From an uncultured Gemmatimonadales bacterium (GTDB lineage Bacteria > Gemmatimonadota > Gemmatimonadetes > Gemmatimonadales > GWC2-71-9): a stretch of DNA of 64,000 nt. The position numbers were made by a program, and so were the translations under genes. The stretch covers positions 1 to 64,000 of the forward strand of contig CAWJMT010000012.1 in the NCBI GenBank assembly GCA_963844035.1. Reading direction: 5' to 3'. This document shows, piece by piece, positions 18,473-29,362 of this stretch (positions within the stretch are counted from its first letter, which is position 1; every line of letters starts with the position of its first letter). The notes under the pieces were generated by a model that was not told the DNA's origin, did not search any database, and was given only the letters and a program-made list of their open reading frames with translations.

Positions 18473-19979
18473 CGGTCCGTTCGACCGTAAACCCTCCCTC
18501 CATTTTCGGCCCCATGTAGGTGATGGCAAGGCCCACCCGCGTCTGCTCGAGCGCGGTGCCCTCATCCAAGACGCTGGCGGGTACCGGCGCTCCGAGGTTG
18601 GTGGCGAGGGTCACGGAGTCCTGCGGGCGACAGGAAGCTGTAGTTGTCGGCGCGTTTGGCCCAATAGCCGGCGGTGAATCCCACCGCGAATGTGCGCGTG
18701 AGCTTGTACATCGGCGCGAAGTCGATGGCGAGGTAGTCCCCGGCGTCCCACGCCAACACCGTGGTCGCCTGGTAGGGCACCAGGAAGGCGTCGGCTGGTG
18801 CCACCCGGCGGGCGCGCGTCGATCCCAGCGCGGTCCCCGCGCGGACGGCAAGATTGAGCCACAGGTGCCGGGCGATCGTCAATTCTTGCGTCACCGTCAG
18901 CTCGTACGCCGTCTGGTGATCGGCGATCGGGACGTCCAGCACTTCGAGGATCGAGTCCCGGGTTCCGGTGGCCAGGCGCACCAGACCGCCCAGCGACACC
19001 GCGTACGGGTCGCCCCCCAGGCGGAGCTTGGCGTGCAGCGCCAGGTCACCGAGGCCGTAGCGCCACGAATCGCCGCAGCGGGGCGTACCCGAAGCCGTCG
19101 TGTCCGTCAAGACCGTCTGCGAACTCCGTCGCCGACACCGTGTCGCCGGACAGCAGAAACCCCGAATTGAACCCCGCCACGTTGTAGGTGTTTTGCAGCT
19201 CGCGTTGCAGCTGCACGACGGTGCTGTCGATGCCGTCGCCCACGGCGGAGCCCGAGAGCGGTACGAACGGCGAGGGCGTGGTGCCCACGCCGTACACCGT
19301 GCGGCTGAGCGCGTCGCGCACCGGCGATGGCCTGGGCGAGAAAGCCTTGCGCCTGGGCGCACTGCGGGCTCGACGGACAGCCGTACTGCCCGCCCGCGAT
19401 GTTGTTGCTCAGCCCGGTGATGGCCGTGTTGAACTGATTGAAGAAGCCGGCGTAGGCGCCGTCGGCGCCGCCGACCGGGCGAGCGGGTTCAGCGCCGAGC
19501 GACGCCCCGGTGGGCGCGACGTCGAAGTGGGCCCGGATCGCCGTCCGCACCAGGGGCAGGGTGACGCCGAACGACAACCGATCGGTCAGACCGAACTCGG
19601 CGGTGAACGGGGTGACGCGCACTTCCGCGTGCGCGTTGAACGCGCCCTGGCCGATGCTCGCCAGGTAGCCGGGCACGCCGCTCGCAATGCGGAGGTCCTG
19701 CTGCAGGCGCGCCACCGTCGGCAGGCGCGCCGTGCCGAGCGTGTCGCCGGTCAACGGAGCGCCCAGGGGCTTGAGGCTGCCGTTCACGAACTCGGCGGCT
19801 CCAGGTGAGGATGCGCGGATCGAAGCGGAGGCGCAGCTCACCCTGCTTGGGGGTATCGGTGCGGTCGACGGATTGCGCGGCTAGCCCGGCCCGTCAGGGC
19901 CGGGCTCGACGAGAGCGAGCACGATGAGAAAAACGGCATCCGCCCGTGGGCAGATGCCGTTGTCGCTTCTCCGGATCAC
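18396..19979 (-). CDS. Uncharacterised exported, probably outer-membrane, protein (several frameshifts)
   Basis: Continuous coding signal across ORFs 19107..19841, 18562..19362, 18396..18851; signal-like N-terminus ending LAAQ; FGLTDRLSFGVTLPLV and GLGDL resemble beta-barrel segments; start approximate. Confidence 0.6.
19883..19906. repeat. Perfect GC-rich palindrome with GTCA/TGAC loop (REP-like)
   Basis: AGCCCGGCCC-GTCA-GGGCCGGGCT. Confidence 0.55.
19929..19961 (-). terminator. Intrinsic terminator-like hairpin after the SGNH hydrolase
   Basis: Minus strand AACGGCATCTGCCC-AC-GGGCGGATGCCGTTTTT. Confidence 0.6.
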
Positions 19980-19995
19980 CGCGGCGGTGTCGCGC

Positions 19996-21207
19996 TCAGG
20001 GAGCAGGGATCGCCGAGGCGTACTTCGCGTTGATGGCGAGGACGACGTGGCGCGCAATGATCAGGTGCGCCGATCCGCTGGGATGGAATCCGTCGCACGA
20101 GAACGCCAGGCCGAACGGTGACGTCGAGCAGGCGGCGCCGATATTCGGGAACGGGGCGACCTGCCCCGGGACCAGGCGCAGTGAGTCGAGCGTCGGATTG
20201 GGATCGATATAGGCCCAGCCGTTCGTCGTGGCCGCGCTCGAGATGAACGCGTTGTACCCGGCGACGGTCGTCAGAATCTTGCGGAGCTCCGCCGGCTGCA
20301 CCGTCTGCGGCTCGGTGCAGTGCAGCGTGTCGGTCACGCCCGCCGCGCGGCGCCGAGCAGCGCGGCGCCGAACGGGAACGGGACGAGCACCGAGTCGCCG
20401 ATGCCCCCGAAGGCGTTGGGCGCGCAGGCGCGTCCACGTGGAACGTGGCCGGGAACGTCACGCCCGGAACGAGTCCCGCCTTGATGGCGTAGTAGGTCCC
20501 GCCCTGCGACGCATACGGGATCGCGGTCACGTTCGCGACACCGATGAGGAGCGCCTTGGCGCCGGTGGCCTTCACCCCGTCCACCACCTCCTGGTAGCGC
20601 GTCTGGAACGTCGCCACGGGCGTGATCAGGGCCGAGTCGCCCGCGTTGGTCGCGCTCAACACGGAACCGAGTACGTCGTTGTTGCCGATCCAGACGCTGA
20701 CAAACGTCGGGCGGGCATCAGCCATCGCCTCGATCTGCGTGCGGCCACCGAGAATGATCTGCGTCAGGGCATTCGAGTTGGTCCCGGGGGTGGGGCCGTT
20801 GTGCATGATGTCGATCACCTGGGCCGATGGCACGCCGAGGTTGCTCACATACGGCGGCGTCGACGCGCGATAGGCGCAGGTCGTGGAGGTGCCGCCAGCC
20901 AGCCGCGTACCGGTGAAGATGTTGGTGTACGGCGGGGGACAGCCCGGCAGGGCGAGGCTCGGGTAGTAGAACGGCGTGCCCATCTTCGCGCCGACCAGCA
21001 CCGGATACGCCTGCTTCTGCGTCGAGTCGTTGATTCCGCCCGACTGGAATCCCGACGTGATGCTGTTGCCGAGCGATACGTAGCGCTGGAACATTGCCCC
21101 GCCGGCATAGGTCGGCACGGCCGGTGGCATCAGCTCTTCGTTGGAGCAGGCGGCGCGACCAGGGCCGCGCCCAAACCGGCGGCGAGCGAGAAGCGACGGA
21201 GCGTCAT
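19996..21207 (-). CDS. SGNH/GDSL hydrolase family lipoprotein (frameshifts)
   Basis: Lipobox-type ...AC; LGNSITSG, NLGVP, WIGNNDVL, DGFHPS; adjacent to a FadL-like gene. Confidence 0.85.
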
Positions 21208-21221
21208 CGTCCTGGCCCCCC

Positions 21222-22594
21222 TTAGAACGTGAACGCCAGCGACACACCGAACAGGTGCGCGCCGAACGTGTACAGGCCGTTGTTGGGCAATGCTTGCGTC
21301 CGGCCGCGCCGGTCGTTCTGACGGATGTACTGATAGGCGAGGTCGGCGGTGAGCTGCTTCCCAAGTTTCAGTCCGAGTCCGCCGGTGAACTCGTTGCGCT
21401 CTCCCTCAGGGAGCAGCGGCGTCACGGTTTCCGGCGGCGCGGCACCCTGATGGTAGAGGTAGCCGCCCCGGACGCGTCAACTGCGCGCTGGTTTCATACT
21501 CGGCGCCGACGCGGATCCCGCTCGTGTTCTGTGTAGTTCTCGGTCAGCGTCTGGTTGAGCGCCGTGTTGGGCGAGAACGTGAGGTTCAGCACGCTGAACG
21601 TGGCTCCAGTGGACCCACTGGTAGTCCGCGAGCAGCGTGAGCTTGTCGGTCGCCTTGTACGCCACCCCGGCAACGAACATGTCCGGATTGGCAATCGACG
21701 CGGTGGCCGTCTGGTCGGCGAGGAGCCCACCGGTTGAGAACAGGCCCAGGCTGGTAATGACCCCGTCGAGCGGCGTCCCGGCAGGGATCGTCCCCAGGAC
21801 CGGGATCGTGATGGTCGCGGGAATGATGATCCCGGTGTTCACCTGCGTGAAGTGCGCCGTGCCCGAGTAGTCCATGTTGACCTTCATCAGGTAACGGGCG
21901 CCGATCGACAACCGCTCGTTCACCTGCGCGATAGCGCCAAAGTGCGCGCCGTAACCGGTGGTCGACGCCTGAAGATCGGCGTCCGCGAAGTCCGTGCCCG
22001 GAGGGATGCCGAACGCGCCGAACGTCGCACCGGGAACGCCGGGGACCGGTGCCCGCGATAGGTCGCGCGCTGGTGCAGCTCGACGCTGCCATGCACGATG
22101 TCGAACCCGCCGCCCAGCTTCAGCCACTTCGTCACCTGATATGCGACGGTCGGCTGGACGTAGATGGTCTTGATAATGTTGTCGTAGCCGGAAAACCGCC
22201 CGTCGAAGGTCAGCGGCCAGCGCGTCTGCAGTCCATACGGGGCGAACACCCCGATTCCCACGCCCATCTTGGGCGTTACTGCATACGAAGCATAGACTTG
22301 AGGAACGTAGAGGATCGGGTCGTTGAGGTCGGTGGTCTCCGCAAAGACGTCATCGGTAAAGCCGCCCATCACCTTGATGATGGTCACCCCGGCGCTGACG
22401 TGACCGCCCTTCAGCCCGGCCAGGCCCGCGGGGTTGAAAAAGATCGCCGACCCGTCGGGACAGGGAGCTGCGGCGGCCGTCCCAGCGCGCCCCATCGTGC
22501 ACGTGCCCTGCTCGTAGATGCCGAATCCCTGCGCACTTAGCAGGGCAGGGAATGCGGCGATCAGCAACCAGGCACACTTCCCGAACCGCTGCAT
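21222..22594 (-). CDS. FadL/OmpP1-family outer-membrane transporter of hydrophobic compounds (frameshifts)
   Basis: Signal peptide then AQGFGIYEQG, SAIFFNPAGL, APYGL, PLLPE; C-terminal Phe. Confidence 0.88.
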
Positions 22595-22645
22595 ACGGAT
22601 GTCTCCGGAGCCGGAGTGACGGCATTGGTGGTAGGAGCCGGTCCT

Positions 22646-22674
22646 ACGGTAGCGATTGCCCCAATGCTTGTCAA
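22646..22674 (-). promoter_or_regulatory. sigma70-type promoter of the FadL-like operon
   Basis: Minus strand TTGACA-17 nt-TACCGT. Confidence 0.6.
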
Positions 22675-22802
22675 ACCCTTGCGCGCACGAGCGATCCCGC
22701 TTTGGCCCCGGGCGTTCCATTCAGGCGTCGGAGAGCCCATTTCCCGCCCCGGTTCCTGCCCCTGGGGGCACCCATAGGGGTTTCCCTGATGGCCTGAGCG
22801 GC

Positions 22803-23971
22803 CTAGCTCGTGGTGGCCTCGAGGAACGGTTCAATGCGGCCCCACGCGGCCTGCCCGTCTTCGTATCCCAGCTCGATCAGCGTGTTCGTGTACGTCGGAT
22901 CGAACACCAGGTAGCTCAAAAAGTCGGCTCCAGCCGCCCGCTCGCCTCCCATCATCCGTACACTCCAACGCAGCAGCGACGGCAGCGCCGCGCCGGTGCC
23001 GCGCGCCAGCGCGCCGAGATTGCGGGAAGGGCGCAGCACCAGGAGGCTGATCGGCCGTAAGCCGTCGGGAGCCGGCCCCGCGGGCCACTGCGCCAGCATG
23101 CGGTTGACGCGCTCGATCTGCTCGACGTCGGCTTCGAGCGCGTCCAGGAACACCGAGTGCAGCAGCAGTCCGACGACCTCGGCGAACGTGGGGTAGTCGC
23201 GCTGCTTCGCGTGCGTCATGGCTTGCCGCGGGTCGCCCTGTTGCGTGACGACCAGAATGCCGCGAGCGCCCAGATGGATGGCGGGTGAGAGCGGGGCGGT
23301 TTGGCGCACGCTGCCGTCGCCGTAGAACGCGCCCTCAATCCGGACCGTTGGGAAGAGCACGGGGAGCGCGCAGGACGCCATGACGTGATCGAGCGAGAGG
23401 GACGCCCGGACGGCGCGCCGCAGCGCCCTGCGCCATGTGGGCGCGTCCGGTCCCCCGTGCACAAACGTCACCACCTCGCCCGAGCCATACGACGTGGCAC
23501 TCAGTGCGATGGCGCGCAGCCGCCCGCTCGCGATCTTGGCGTCGATCCCTGAGAAATTGATGGACCCGTTGAGGAACTCCCGCAACGGCTCCAGGTCCAC
23601 GAGCCCGCGCACGGTGGCCGGGTCGGTGCGCCTGCCCGAGGGCGCCGGCGACGAGCGCGCGCAGCAATGGCGGGGCCCACCCGCAGCGGGCGGATGCGGT
23701 ACACGCGGTTGGCCACGAGCTGCAGCCAGTTGGCGCGCAGCGCGCCCACCGCCTCGGCGAACGATCCCTGATGGGCGGCGAGGAACGTGGCGTTGATGGC
23801 GCCGGCGGATTCGCCGGTGATGATCGGGAACTCGAGCGTGGGCGCTCGCTCGGCGATCGCCGACAGAATGCCGACTTCGTAGGCGGCGCGCGCGCCGCCG
23901 CCCCCCAGCACCAGCGCCCGCGGATGGGGCTCCCGCTGCGCCGCGTCGTGAGGACTGGAGGCGTCGATCAT
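22803..23971 (-). CDS. Patatin-like phospholipase (frameshift near 23620-23670)
   Basis: LVLGGGGARAAY, GESAG nucleophile elbow, YGDGS. Confidence 0.9.
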
Positions 23972-24017
23972 TGCTGGAAAGCTACGCCGCAATCGGGCGT
24001 TGAGGCAGCAGGTGCGG

Positions 24018-25938
24018 CTAGAAGGCTACGCGCATCCCCACGTTGACGACGCGTCCGTCGAGAGGAGCCCACACGTCCGTGGTCCCCTTGAGCTCCGCCC
24101 GCGGTGCGAGGGTGAGCAGGGGACCGTAACGCGTCTGTCGCACGTCGCCGAGATTTTCGCCGTTGATGTAGAGGTCGACCGCGCCGAGGCGGCGTGCTGC
24201 ACGCAGCGCGACGGTGGCATAGGGCGGAGTAGCCGAACGGTAGGGGTTATCGAATACCACTTGCCGACCTGTATAGCTGACGTGGAACGCCAGGCGCGTT
24301 CGGCCAGGGGCATCTTTCCACGCGACATCCAGGGCTCCACTGTGGCGCGGGGTGAGTGGTGCCTCGACGCGGCTGGCCGTGGCCGCCGAGAACACCGTAG
24401 AATGGAGGTAGGCGTAGTCCACGGTGACCCTCCATGCCCGCTGCACGTAGACCGCGACGAGTTCAGCGCCCGCCGTGCGCGTGGGGCCCGGTGCGTTGAT
24501 CAGCTGGGGGCGCTCTTCGAAGGGGTTGAGCTCCGAAACGATGAGGGGATGCTCGACGCGGGCCGCGAACAACGTGGTGGTCAAGCGCAGGCTGCCGATG
24601 TGCCCGGCCAGATCGAGCGACCCATATCGTGCCCGCTGCGCCTGGATGGAAAGGGGAGCCGTCGTGGCAACCTCACCGGAGTCGCTGAAACACAGGCCGA
24701 CACTGCACACGGTGATAGTGCGCGTATTGAACGGTACGAGTCCCGCGAGGGGAATCCCATCCGTCTCGTCCAGAAAGGGCGTGGGGGCGAAGAAGCCAGT
24801 CGCGCCCGAGAGCTGGACCTGCCAGGCTCCGGGCCCACGGAACAATGCGGAGACGCGCGGAGTGCACACAGTCCCGTAGTCGCTCTGCCAGTCGCAGCGA
24901 GCGTTCGCGGTCAGACTCGCGCGCTGGCTCAAGGCGAGAGTAGCCTGCGCCACGAGTGACGGGGTGTCGTATGAGTACTCGAATCCCGCGAGGTCCGAGG
25001 AGTGAAAGGCGTCATGCTCGTATCCGGCGCCGAGCGCCCACGTGACCCTGTGGTACGGCATCGTGAGGATCGCTTCGGAGAAGACGGTCTCGTGTCGCCC
25101 GTGTTCGACGTAGGCCCGCGCATACGGTCCGTAGGTTTGTCGCCCCCATTCGGACACTGCTGACCCCCGCACCGTCAGCCTGCCGGCGGCAATCGGAACG
25201 ACGCCCACGACGCCCGCATCCGCCCGATTGGTGTTCGCGGACGCAGTGAACGGCTCTCCATCCGGCAGCGTCGTCTGCGGCAGCGTGCCTCCCGAGCGAG
25301 CCTCGGACATGCCGCCGATCGTGGCGAGGAGCGACGCGCCATGATTCCCGTTCCAGAACACCCGGGGTCGAAGCTCGACGCGTCGAAACCCGGGTACATC
25401 AGCCCACGCGTCGTTGTTCACATCCGCGGCGCCCTGTCGGTGCACGCCGCCGACGACGTTGAGCCCCCATTGGTCGTTGAGGCGGCTGGACACCCAGGCC
25501 ATCGCGTCCGTGCCGTGCTGCGAGGTCTGGTTCAGGACGACCTCGTTGTCGGTCGTCTGGGGGATGCGAGATGAGATTGACAACCCCGCCGAGCGCGGAA
25601 GGCCCGTACAGCGCGGTGGCCGGGCCCTTGATCACCTCTACGCGCTCGATGTCCAGCGCCGACACCTGCACGAACCCCAACCCGCCGAATTGGGCGCCGA
25701 ACAGCGGCAGACCGTCGACCAGCACCTGAGTGTACTGGCCTGGCAGGCCCTGAATGCGAATACCCACGGATCCGAGCGCTGCGGAGGTGGTCTCGACCCG
25801 CACGCCGCTCGTCTGCTCGAGTAGCTCGAGCAGACTGAGCGACGGGGCGTCGGCGCTGTCGCCCGGGGTCTGCGCCGCCCCGGTTCCGGCGACGGCGCCG
25901 AGCCCCACCACAAGCTGCAAGATTCTGAGCTTTGCCAT
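24018..25938 (-). CDS. TonB-dependent receptor (frameshift near 25575)
   Basis: IRIQGLPGQYTQVLVDG, IERVEVIKGPATALYG, GENLGD, C-terminal GMRVAF. Confidence 0.9.
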
Positions 25939-25944
25939 CGAGGC

Positions 25945-28209
25945 TCAGTACTGCCACGTCACCCGAGCCATCAGATTGCGCCCTTGGCCGGGATCGACGG
26001 CGTTCGTCTTGATCCGGCTCAAGAAATCGACATAGCGCTGATTCAACGCGTTTCGCAGCGAGAGGTCGACGCGCAACGCATTCCGCCCCAGCGGGAGCGC
26101 GAACCCCGCCCCGAGGTTGAGGAGCGTGTATGACTGCGATTGATAGCCCGCGCCTTCGAACGCCGTCGCGAAGAACTGGGCCTCGCTCGGGTCGAGTCGC
26201 GTCTGCCGCGCGTTCGATTCGCCGCCCAGGGAGAAGTAGCAGTCCGTGAGCGTCCCAATCCGCCCGCCCTCCAGGCGTGCTGCATAGGTCGCCCGGAACG
26301 GGGGGATGCTGGGGAGCGGCTGGTCCGTGCTGGTGTTCTGCCCCTGCACGTAGTCCGCCGTTGCGTGGAGGTGCAGAAACGTCGTGGGATGGAACTCCAC
26401 CGCGCTTTCAATACCCACCAGACGGGCGTCGCCCTGCGTGGCGTCGTAGATCTCGAATCCGGACTCGGGGTCTATCTCGCCACTTGGCACGGTGAAGATG
26501 AAGTCGTTCACAAGGTTCGCGAACGCGCCCACTTCGAACGACACTGTGCGGCTCTGGACGCGAACAGCCAGATCCGTATTGAGCGAGCTCTCGGTCCCGA
26601 GCGCCGGATTCCCCCGTTCGAACGCGACCGTGCCCTCGTGCACGCCGTTGGCGAACAGGTCGAAGCTCGATGGAGCCCGGAACCCGCGGCCGACATTGAG
26701 CACCAGGGCGACCGGCTCGGAGATGTGGTACAGCGCCCCGACGTTGCCTGTGATCGAGTTGTACGTCCGGGTCTGCGCCGTCACGTCGATCGCCGCGTCG
26801 TCCTCGACGTCGAGGTGGCGGTAGTCGAACCGCCCTCCGATTGAGAAAGTCCAGCGGCCGGCATCGGCCTGCTCGAAAGCGTACGCGCCCACGTTGTCGG
26901 CGGTAGTGTTCGGGACCAGCGTTTCCTCGCCGAACTTGGTGAACCGGCTGCGGTAGCCGGAGACGCCGACCAGCCCCTGCAGCCGGCCGAGCGGCGGGTG
27001 GTGGTAGTGCACTTCGGTCAGATAGGTGCGCGACAGCAGGCCCAGCGCGACGTCGGTGGCGGCCGCATCCTCGAATTCGCGGCGGCGATTCTGCTCGACT
27101 CCGCTCGTGACCTCGAGGCGCCCCGCCCCCGCGGGCAGTGTGAGATTCACACGGCCCCGTTGCTCTTCGATGCGCTGATACGGCGTGGCGGCCGGGTCTT
27201 CGTCGGTGAGCTCGATGCGCTCGCCGCGATACGCGTACGTCCCCGACACGGCCCCCCAGCTGCCGCGGTAGCCCAACACTCCACTCCCCGAGCCAGCGCG
27301 ATTGGCGCTGTTCCACAGCGCGTAGTCGGGGGTGTGCAGGTTTTCGCTGCTCCGGCCGGTGAATGACGCCCGCGCCCCCAGACCTCCGCTCGCGCCGGCG
27401 AACGCGATCGTGCCATCCGGTTGCCGGTTGTTGGACTGGTACGCGGTGGTGAGACTGCCATGCAGGAACGCCGGCCGTCCGATGGCGTCCGGCACGGGCA
27501 GCGGAATGACGTTGATCACGCCTCCGAGCGCATCGGACCCGTACAGGACGCTCGCCGGCCCGCGGATCACCTCGATGCGCTCGACTCCGGCCACCTCGAT
27601 GTTCGGGCTGTGCTCGTCGCCCCACTGCTGCGTCTCGAGCCGCTGGCCGTCGTCGAGCACCAGCACCCGGTTCGAGGTCAGGCCGCGGATCACGGGTTTC
27701 CCGATCCCGACACCGGTGCTGAGACTGTGCACCCCCGGCGTGCCCGAGAGCGTTTCGCCGAGACTGGGCGCCTGCGCGGTGCGCAGCGCATCGGCGTCGA
27801 CCACCGTGGTGGGTTGGGGTGAATTGAACGTGCTCGTGGCCGTGGCACTCGCGGTCACCTGCACCGTGCTCAGCTCGAGAGCGGACGCCTTCAGGGCGAA
27901 GTCCGCCGTGACATCGCCATCGGACACGGTGATGCGGCGCACCTGCGGCGCATACCCGATCATGGCGATGGAGAGTGTGTAGGTACCGGGCGCGACCGCC
28001 TCAAACGAGTAGACCCCGTCGGCGCTAGTCTCGCCCGAGCGACCAATCTCGACCAGGCTCACGCGCGCGAACGCCAGGGGTGGTCCTTCAGCCGACACGA
28101 CGCGCCCCGAGATCTTGAATGCGGGCCCGGCGTGGGCGACGCGAGGAGCGACGAACAGCGTGAGCAATGCCAGGGCTCGCGCCGAGCAATGAAGCAACGT
28201 GCGATGCAT
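25945..28209 (-). CDS. TonB-dependent receptor with N-terminal carboxypeptidase-regulatory-like domain, probably metal uptake
   Basis: Signal peptide; KPVIRGL, QQWGDEH, IEVIRGPASVLYGSDALGGVIN, NGVHEG; aromatic C-terminus; GGAGG RBS. Confidence 0.92.
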   Translation of the reverse strand: MHRTLLHCSARALALLTLFVAPRVAHAGPAFKISGRVVSAEGPPLAFARVSLVEIGRSGETSADGVYSFEAVAPGTYTLSIAMIGYAPQVRRITVSDGDVTADFALKASALELSTVQVTASATATSTFNSPQPTTVVDADALRTAQAPSLGETLSGTPGVHSLSTGVGIGKPVIRGLTSNRVLVLDDGQRLETQQWGDEHSPNIEVAGVERIEVIRGPASVLYGSDALGGVINVIPLPVPDAIGRPAFLHGSLTTAYQSNNRQPDGTIAFAGASGGLGARASFTGRSSENLHTPDYALWNSANRAGSGSGVLGYRGSWGAVSGTYAYRGERIELTDEDPAATPYQRIEEQRGRVNLTLPAGAGRLEVTSGVEQNRRREFEDAAATDVALGLLSRTYLTEVHYHHPPLGRLQGLVGVSGYRSRFTKFGEETLVPNTTADNVGAYAFEQADAGRWTFSIGGRFDYRHLDVEDDAAIDVTAQTRTYNSITGNVGALYHISEPVALVLNVGRGFRAPSSFDLFANGVHEGTVAFERGNPALGTESSLNTDLAVRVQSRTVSFEVGAFANLVNDFIFTVPSGEIDPESGFEIYDATQGDARLVGIESAVEFHPTTFLHLHATADYVQGQNTSTDQPLPSIPPFRATYAARLEGGRIGTLTDCYFSLGGESNARQTRLDPSEAQFFATAFEGAGYQSQSYTLLNLGAGFALPLGRNALRVDLSLRNALNQRYVDFLSRIKTNAVDPGQGRNLMARVTWQY

Positions 28210-28311
28210 GTGAAATTCCCTCCCGTAACGAGCGGTCATGCACGGCGCGCCCCGGGTCTCCGGGGTTCGTTCCGTGCCAAAGGGCCGCGCCGCGGCGCGG
28301 GTCAGACCGGG

Positions 28312-28656
28312 CTACGAGAGGTGTGGTGGAGCGCGAGAGTCGGGGAGGCGTTCCTGAGGAGCGGAGAAAACGACGTCGTTGAAGGCGCGCCAGGCGCTGC
28401 GAGGTTCGGCGACGCTAATACTGACCTTTGCGGTCGTTCCTGGGGTGAAAGGCGCGGACAGAAAGCGGTGAAAGGCGCAGTCCGCGGGATGGACCCGAAC
28501 GCAAGAGTCGGTCGTCTGCGAATCGAAGTGCGCCACGGCCATGGCGCTGGCTGCGTCAAGCCGCGCGTCCGCCCAGGCGACTGCGCCCGGCAGGCCAACC
28601 TGAAGTGCCAGAAGGCCGGCGAGAAGGAAACGGACGGGCCGCGAGCGTCGAGACAT
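28312..28656 (-). CDS. Small exported leader protein with Cys/His motif and C-terminal RAPP (DUF2946/CruR-like)
   Basis: Signal-like N-terminus, CVRVHPADCAFH, ends SRAPPHLS; directly upstream of the TonB receptor. Confidence 0.78.
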   Translation of the reverse strand: MSRRSRPVRFLLAGLLALQVGLPGAVAWADARLDAASAMAVAHFDSQTTDSCVRVHPADCAFHRFLSAPFTPGTTAKVSISVAEPRSAWRAFNDVVFSAPQERLPDSRAPPHLS

Positions 28657-28664
28657 GATGGAAC

Positions 28665-28693
28665 AGGATACTATCGGGGCTGAGGAACGCCAA
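28665..28693 (-). promoter_or_regulatory. Promoter of the RAPP leader (probably leaderless)
   Basis: Minus strand TTGGCG-17 nt-TATCCT, 8 nt before the ATG at 28656; no SD. Confidence 0.55.
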
Positions 28694-28764: not shown

Positions 28765-29362
28765 GTGGCTGACTGCTGTGATGTCGAGGCGCAACACGTC
28801 CGGCGAGGCGTTTTGGTGGCCGTGCTGGCCATCAACTTCGGGTTGTTCCTGGTGGAGAGTGTTGCAGGCGTGCTGGCGCGCTCGGCGGCGCTGCTCGGCG
28901 ATTCGCTCGACATGCTGGGCGACGCACTAGTCTATGGGTTCAGTCTTTACGTCGCTCAGTCGCGGCGCCATCTGGAGGGTGCGTGCGGCCTACTCCAAGG
29001 GTCTCGTGATGCTCGTCTTTGGGGTCGGCGTCCTGGCCGAAGTGCTGCACAAAGTGTTGTCTCCGGCGCCGCCGGTAGCGGAAGCGATGGGAGTCGTCGG
29101 AGTATTGGCTCTGGCCGGAAACGCGGTGTGTTTCTGGCTCCTGTTTCGGCATCGAACGGAGGACCTGAACATGCGGTCAACCTGGCTGTGTTCGCGGAAC
29201 GACTTGCTGGCGAATACGGCGGTGATCGCCGCTGCGGTGGCTGTCTCCCTGACCGGGAGTCATTGGCCTGATGTGGTGGTGGGTGGGGCGATCGCGGCGC
29301 TGTTCGTGCAGACGGCGTTCACCGTGCTTCGCGCCGCGAGGATCGAGGTGCGACAGGTGTAG
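28765..29362 (+). CDS. Cation diffusion facilitator family transporter, short form (frameshift near 28958)
   Basis: MADCC N-terminus, SAALLGDSLDMLGD, DLNMRSTWLCSRND, WPDVVVG. Confidence 0.88.

Follow-up and report, generated by a model that had tools for sequence, protein, structure and literature searches.

The window analysed here, a 64,000-nucleotide (nt) stretch of contig CAWJMT010000012.1 from an uncultured Gemmatimonadales bacterium, encodes on its minus strand (28312..28656) a leader of 114 residues which ORF (open reading frame) and homologue searches place as a likely, divergent member of the DUF2946 (CruR/CutF-type) upstream ORFs (uORFs). We propose that this Cys/His leader stalls its ribosome at a C-terminal RAPP motif, thereby uncovering the ribosome-binding site of the ZnuD-like receptor gene that follows, which would otherwise be masked by the leader's own last codons, and that the metal sensed is zinc. 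Taken as a whole, this proposal stands at roughly even chances; the odds of its steps (arrest, unmasking, metal gating, zinc and sign) are correlated. That the leader is a real, well-conserved regulatory gene is confirmed by comparison with its relatives, whereas the regulation itself is predicted.

A conserved leader with a Cys/His cluster and RAPP

The original prediction, made from the letters of the window, described a 114-residue ORF with RAPP three residues before the stop, followed by a hairpin spacer and the receptor's ribosome-binding site. This anatomy was recovered. The RAPP motif occupies residues 108–111 (28324..28335, minus strand; assigned by conservation), three residues ahead of the stop, and between the leader and the receptor ATG at 28209 lies a 102-nt spacer with GC hairpins and the Shine-Dalgarno (SD) sequence GGGAGG. 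The predicted ligand cluster is also present, as HFDSQTTDSCVRVHPADCAFH; its arrangement, however, is H43-x8-C52-x3-H56-x3-C60-x2-H63, so that the first gap is x8 and not x7 as had been stated. Conservation outlines a putative metal site H43-x-D/E45 ... C52, H56, C60, H63 (28468..28530, minus strand).

Conservation was read from a close set of 104 sequences (the query and 103 relatives from a word-seeded search) and a wider set of the 150 best leader representatives. H43, C52, H56, C60, R108 and P110 are found in all 104 close sequences and H63 in 102 of them. R[AG]PP sits at most 8 residues from the C-terminus in 102/104, and is seen in 138/150 of the wider set. Although the linker varies, the gap between the Cys motif and RAPP, 44 residues in the query, is 44 in 101/102 close sequences and 42–45 in 133 of the 134 wider representatives that could be scored. 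The conservation of RAPP and of the Cys/His residues in homologues, on which the original prediction hung, is thus borne out. A profile search extended the family to 562 50%-clusters at E ≤ 0.001, and matched in 76 of a sample of 401 genomes from Gemmatimonadota, the phylum to which the closest leader loci and the Atlas taxa also belong. As stand-alone evidence, a RAPP near a stop codon was discarded: it occurs at chance level in this GC-rich genome, in 97 six-frame segments versus 63–110 for five control motifs. Because RAPP before a stop is so common by chance in the genome's reading frames, the case for the leader rests on conservation.

Residues 1–29 (28570..28656, minus strand) form a predicted Sec-type export signal, recognised by eye from a basic n-region, a hydrophobic h-region and AWA-D, from a helix spanning residues 6–38 in the structure model, and from conserved residues: Q19 and D30 in 104/104 close sequences and P23 in 98/104. 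Near-invariant Gln19, Pro23 and Asp30 (leader residues 19–30; 28567-28602, minus strand) are unusual for a plain signal peptide. The AlphaFold model of the leader has two helices and a predicted template modelling score (pTM) of 0.35; it is uninformative on the metal site, and a Foldseek search with it gave no match, other fold libraries not having been tried.

The transcript appears to be leaderless or nearly so, as had been suggested and as the relatives support. In the window, TAGTAT and TATCCT stand 11 and 8 nt 5′ of the ATG and make up a putative −10 box (28665..28673, minus strand), which would leave a short 5′ untranslated region or none. Over 80 genome loci, the positional enrichment of TAnnnT 6–9 nt 5′ of the start (30 matches) and the scarcity of SD-like words ahead of it (5/80) point the same way, with start sites called heuristically. 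A strict promoter/terminator scan at the leader locus found none. Of the sequencing runs listed as containing this DNA, none was of RNA, and the DNA runs had it at a small share.

The leader's last codons are predicted to pair with the receptor Shine-Dalgarno

What the original prediction did not pick up is the predicted pairing between the leader's closing codons and the SD of the receptor gene. Folding joins the bases right after RAPP (28321-28311) and the SD arm (28229-28219) in an 11-pair helix. The anti-SD arm CCTCTCGTAGC (28311..28321, minus strand; folding, covariation) comprises the end of a His codon, the Leu-Ser codons and the stop, and would be covered by a ribosome that has stalled at RAPP. 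Its partner GTTACGGGAGG (28219..28229, minus strand; folding) is separated from it by a GC-rich spacer (28230..28310, minus strand; folding) whose internal hairpins would bring both arms together. When 126 nt were folded, the helix had a z of −3.68 and 0/200 shuffles were as good. Opening the ribosome-binding site is predicted to cost 17.8 kcal/mol in the free RNA, 7.2 kcal/mol with the stalled footprint and 17.0 kcal/mol with a control block placed upstream only. Opening free energy was used in place of the mean unpaired probability of the SD, which we rejected as a weak measure of switching in GC-rich RNA. Among relatives (the 80 loci less 3 without an in-frame RAPP), drops of at least 3 kcal/mol are predicted for 7/10 loci with a receptor of the window's type, 20/29 with another receptor class that we term class X, 8/11 others and 7/28 with a more distant ZnuD-like receptor; the control footprint gave such drops in 1, 5, 2 and 5 loci, respectively.

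Codon choice and compensatory changes argue for the same pairing. The terminal Leu-Ser is written CTCTCC in 21/27 leaders versus 43/487 internal Leu-Ser pairs, the kin among them not being independent. The window's tail pairs at 10/10 positions with its own SD region, and 1 in 400 sampled SD-like regions of the genome did as well. The third Ser base, in 27 distinct tail/SD pairs, forms C-G in 25 and G-C in the window, a compensatory change; another of these loci swaps T-A for G-C. MAFFT mis-registered the SD arms, and the pairs were counted by script in the best-pairing register. A test of own against permuted duplexes was significant in the distant class too, where it may partly reflect kinship or composition.

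On these models, we consider it highly probable that a stalled ribosome would unmask the receptor SD. The wiring is predicted, by analogy, to follow the layout of SecM and CutF rather than CruR's Rho route, although the C-rich tail leaves room for Rho. In the distant receptor class, the wiring is weak or different.

Receptor targets and the case for zinc

The presumed regulated target is a TonB-dependent receptor (25945..28209, minus strand; likely ATG start at 28209), assigned by structure match, hidden Markov models (HMMs) and ligand alignment. Its best solved match is ZnuD of Neisseria meningitidis (E 2.7e-28). The high-affinity zinc ligands D99, H100, E340 and H499 given for ZnuD (PMC4557270) align to E209, H210, E388 and H534 of the window receptor (764-residue frame numbering), E388 lying near the edge of the pairwise alignment. 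H210, E388 and H534 are kept in 37/37 receptors, and position 209 is Asp in 33/37 relatives. We call the receptor ZnuD-like and not ZnuD because its 157.6 bits on NCBIfam NF038289 are far below the cut-off of 950. It also differs from ZnuD in an extra N-terminal CarboxypepD_reg domain, and ZnuD is described as Zur-controlled.

The neighbours of other leaders point to metal import as well. The first gene downstream is a TonB receptor in 66 of the 80 loci (9 of the window's type, 28 distant ZnuD-like, 29 class X); elsewhere it is a porin-like gene at the head of ZnuA/ZnuB-like genes (7), or codes for an efflux outer-membrane protein (2) or an unknown protein (1), while 2 loci end at a contig edge and 2 are doubtful hits. 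A ZnuB-like permease is present in 28/90 and a ZnuA-like binding protein in 20/90 leader loci, a few of which are duplicate or overlapping. In the own genome, a second RAPP leader, L133 (G000:C5:135857-136381, minus strand; frameshifted), is of the CxxC type and carries the same CTCTCC-stop arm; porin-like, ZnuA-like and ZnuB-like genes follow, in the sole ZnuA-family operon found. In the reverse direction, starting from receptors, a RAPP or RSPP ORF, often richer in His, precedes 6/6 of the closest receptors with upstream DNA (1 further locus has none) and 0/9 of the more distant ones. These further His-rich RAPP/RSPP leaders before close receptor homologues (L013-L019) have one or two Cys, and the profile missed 3/6 of them.

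A Zur-like gene was not found in 22 leader-bearing genomes of the window's family, in a loose first pass over assemblies that is not proof of absence. Fur-family searches gave no strong match in 11 of these genomes and just one in each of the other 11; the copy in the own genome is nearer Fur than Zur. Weak Fur-family matches were dismissed as Zur candidates, being PadR-like on a reading of 7. Zinc is thus moderately favoured as the sensed metal, on the receptor's ligand positions, the ZnuA/ZnuB-like neighbours and the failure to find Zur.

CxxH is more likely a lineage substitution

In the original prediction, the CxxH ligands marked a variant for another metal. A non-copper metal does seem likely; that CxxH signals it does not. 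Position 63 is His in the query and Cys in most of the wider family: CxxC occurs in 135 of the 150 wider representatives, CxxH in 9 and another motif or none in 6, whereas the query and its near kin (102/104 close sequences) have CxxH. A quick tree built from 90 leaders places the CxxH rows, 20 in all, together on a single side of one branch (support 88, not starred), embedded in the CxxC rows. Eight CxxH loci are among the 80 genome loci, 6 before a receptor of the window's type and 2 before a class X receptor, a His-rich type unrelated to it; in the tree set, CxxC leaders precede the same classes (3 and 25, respectively). Since the clade is nested and the receptor classes are common to CxxC leaders, CxxH is more likely a lineage substitution than a switch in metal specificity, and the latter was set aside as unlikely.

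Relation to known arrest peptides

The leader's likeness to DUF2946 was claimed from its anatomy, and this holds on anatomy, spacing and remote profile matches in relatives. CruR (Bp2923, DUF2946/PF11162) of Bordetella pertussis has CxxC, then 45 residues, then RAPP three residues from its end (PMC9426467), and arrests in vitro, its two prolines occupying the P and A sites (PMC12992588). Both leaders are the first gene of an operon, stand before a TonB importer, carry an export signal (predicted in ours) and are followed by a long structured spacer; in both, the Cys motif is some 44–45 residues ahead of RAPP, itself three residues from the C-terminus. Unlike CruR, the present leader has CxxH with three further conserved His/Cys and scores below the Pfam cut-off. 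Its target is ZnuD-like instead of a copper receptor, an SD-masking helix is predicted in place of the Rho termination shown for CruR, and the family heads ZnuD-, ZnuA- and ZnuB-like metal-import operons, while CruR operons hold copper-homeostasis genes. The proposed check against the DUF2946 HMM gave a divided result: the query had no match, and 33 of the 74 relatives scanned (out of the 150 wider representatives) matched at E ≤ 0.05, 3 of them above the Pfam cut-off. The leader's Atlas neighbour cluster is 13% DUF2946. It thus likely works like, and is likely homologous to, the DUF2946 leaders of the CruR/CutF type, even though by Pfam score and by the want of CxxC the query falls formally outside them.

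CutF of Rhodobacter capsulatus is likewise a uORF, exported as ours is predicted to be; when it stalls, a stem-loop over the SD of the next gene melts, which we also predict here. Its stalling occurs with copper and switches on a detoxifying oxidase (10.1101/2022.11.11.516240). The present target is an importer and the sign probably opposite, and the anti-SD lies in the last codons with its partner about 100 nt away. Of the features that define CutF-like uORFs, the leader has fewer than 150 residues (114), PP among the 15 residues nearest its C-terminus, a downstream gene within 1 kb on the same strand (102-nt gap) and a Cys/His motif; the signal peptide that the class also demands is here read from sequence. 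The CutF-like clusters described number 29, their sites being Cys, His or mixed, and a Ni/Co branch has been suggested (10.1101/2025.02.05.636593), so that mixed Cys/His sensors and non-copper metals were already anticipated (10.1101/2022.11.11.516240, 10.1101/2025.02.05.636593). SecM and the RAPP peptides upstream of sec genes share with our leader RAPP and, by prediction, the signal sequence and the disruption of an SD-sequestering stem by the stalled ribosome (PMC10987492); they differ in that a metal-ligand cluster and metal-import targets here take the place of Sec/YidC.

The class itself (CruR, CutF, the CutF-like clusters and TonB-linked RAPP uORFs, the last reported as universal in Gram-negative bacteria by PMC12992588) is already known. 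The original prediction knew of no description in this phylum, and none was found: Gemmatimonadota go unmentioned in the main texts, as far as accessible, on CruR, CutF, the CutF-like clusters and RAPP peptides, and are absent from the CruR Table S1 (PMC9426467) and from the supplement text of PMC12992588 and PMC9973294 (8,054 characters), where accessions may go unnamed. Members of the phylum may therefore stand, unnamed, in published supplementary accession lists. Among the full-text matches listed, subscription papers being outside that coverage, neither an arrest peptide that senses zinc nor a leader of this kind in Gemmatimonadota appeared. The CruR paper states that no riboswitch for Cu or Zn has been described (PMC9426467).

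Proposed mechanism and its alternatives

In the mechanism that we propose, the near-leaderless transcript is translated and, without metal, the ribosome would stall at RAPP with Pro110 and Pro111 in the P and A sites, a placement taken from CruR and the Apd-type peptides. The stalled footprint would cover the Leu-Ser-stop codons, free the SD and allow the importer to be made. When metal is plentiful, H43, C52, H56, C60 and H63 would bind it while the chain emerges from the tunnel, and folding would pull the arrest loose; the released ribosome would finish, the helix would close and the importer would be off. Rho acting on C-rich untranslated RNA may reinforce the shut-off. Arrest at RAPP is, by analogy, very probable, and the gating by metal nearly as much so. 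That metal would switch the importer off is likely too: the sign is chosen because the target is an importer and CruR is the precedent, the sign of CutF being opposite.

Several observations weigh against this reading. The related genomes do not count as independent, and the loci include duplicates. A longer fold, of 161 nt, gives a z of just −1.61; the SD remains mostly paired in the window's stalled equilibrium ensemble (unpaired 0.03); pairing of SD and tail exceeds p = 0.5 in 17/29 class X loci and in 1/28 distant ZnuD-like loci; and one CxxH locus (L066) is without the anti-SD arm. The query leader has no Pfam or NCBIfam match, and PF11162 run over the own genome found none at the leader locus. 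Heme/hemoglobin receptor HMMs score higher on the window receptor (189.5 and 177.9 bits) than the ZnuD model, all of them below cut-off, and no solved relative was found for the class X receptors. Cys-rich sites, moreover, bind Cu(I) as well, and copper is the metal sensed by the two characterised members of the family.

The last point leads to the most serious rival, namely the same switch sensing copper as in CruR and CutF (PMC9426467; 10.1101/2022.11.11.516240), with receptors that import copper or a copper chelate. CxxC as the family norm (135/150), SCO1/SenC lying divergently beside 3/90 loci and OEP/RND efflux genes after 2 distant leaders would fit it. On the other side, the receptor scores much lower with OprC and the TonB-copper model than with ZnuD, the recurrent neighbours are ZnuA/ZnuB-like, more distant leaders that precede the same receptor have more His, and no PCuAC, PepSY or multicopper oxidase was seen among the 34 neighbour-cluster representatives scanned, single-copy neighbours lying outside that scan. 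We regard copper as unlikely, and a different divalent metal (Ni, Co, Mn, Fe) or more than one metal as slightly less likely still. His-only CutF-like clusters reportedly precede Ni/Co HupE/UreJ transporters (10.1101/2025.02.05.636593). ZnuA-family proteins carry Mn or Fe too, and the binding protein scores 117.5 on the MntC model vs 129.8 on AztC. The retained ZnuD ligand positions speak for zinc, however, as do three His ligand motifs in the binding proteins (PHY/F, NPH, YHK), which we take to be a Zn-type pattern.

The remaining alternatives change the switch and not the metal. Control might run mainly through Rho-dependent termination, with the anti-SD helix secondary: C is in excess over the final 96 nt of the leader (C/G 2.12 in the window vs 0.97 for the receptor gene), in CruR a C>G bubble within the uORF serves as the rut site (PMC9426467), and the distant class lacks strong SD pairing. 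This is improbable, since the pairing covaries and codon use is biased in the window's family, and since RAPP and the anti-SD codons themselves partly force the C-richness. Less probable again is a leader that monitors Sec export or disulfide status in the manner of SecM or Apd peptides. Its predicted export signal and RAPP are their anatomy, and its Cys pairs could form disulfides; the invariant His, the C-to-H exchange at position 63 and the metal-import targets speak against it. Signal peptide and metal ligands would also suit a small secreted metallochaperone in which RAPP is incidental; we find this very hard to credit, given a model that predicts no globular fold (pTM 0.35), a spacing fixed at 43–45 although the linker varies, and complementarity at codon level to the SD of the next gene.

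Should the zinc switch prove true, nascent-chain metal sensing would extend to a second metal, the characterised leaders CruR and CutF responding to copper in the texts available, and zinc-import control could be explained in an abundant soil phylum where no Zur was found. A bolder claim, which we hold only tentatively and think somewhat less likely than the zinc switch in the window, is that of a first zinc-sensing arrest peptide: a phylum-wide family that translationally runs the zinc-uptake regulon (ZnuD-like receptor, porin, ZnuA/ZnuB) in Zur-less Gemmatimonadales through an anti-SD in its last codons. The natural CxxC/CxxH pairs before the same receptor, and the short covarying helix, make ligand specificity and coupling directly testable in a purified translation system.

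Neighbouring genes and other observations

Two TonB receptors were said to follow the leader, and in the window two do; the two-receptor layout recurs in just 1 other locus. The second receptor (24018..25938, minus strand; homologue comparison) is frameshifted in the assembly, probably belongs to the same operon and is rarely conserved. A conserved two-receptor operon was accordingly discarded, the second receptor being found in 1/26 loci of one comparison and 0/80 of another. The closest relative, L001, has a first receptor unlike the window's and then a homologue of the window's second receptor. At 19976-25938 (minus strand), the second receptor, patatin and FadL-like genes each lie in two frames, as do other genes of the genome, probably through assembly errors. 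Divergent from the leader, at 28765-29362 (plus strand), is a cation-efflux (CDF) gene, split by a frameshift and with the N-terminus MADCC; no homologue was seen in 106 related loci tested.

Class X receptors (L062:4037-6424, minus strand, and 28 other loci) have 15 conserved histidines, 9 of these in 26–27 of 27, and are interchangeable with ZnuD-like receptors behind near-identical leaders. An unannotated protein of about 420 residues precedes ZnuA/ZnuB-like genes (L127:5122-6384, minus strand), its nearest named Atlas cluster being Porin_O_P (22% of members). Lying 3′ of the receptor at L071:3996-5666 (plus strand) and in 22 other loci is an unannotated, lipoprotein-like protein of about 557 residues with an HEFQH motif. 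Endonuclease IV, which is a zinc enzyme, is often encoded near the leaders (L116:4125-5132, minus strand, and 16 other loci).

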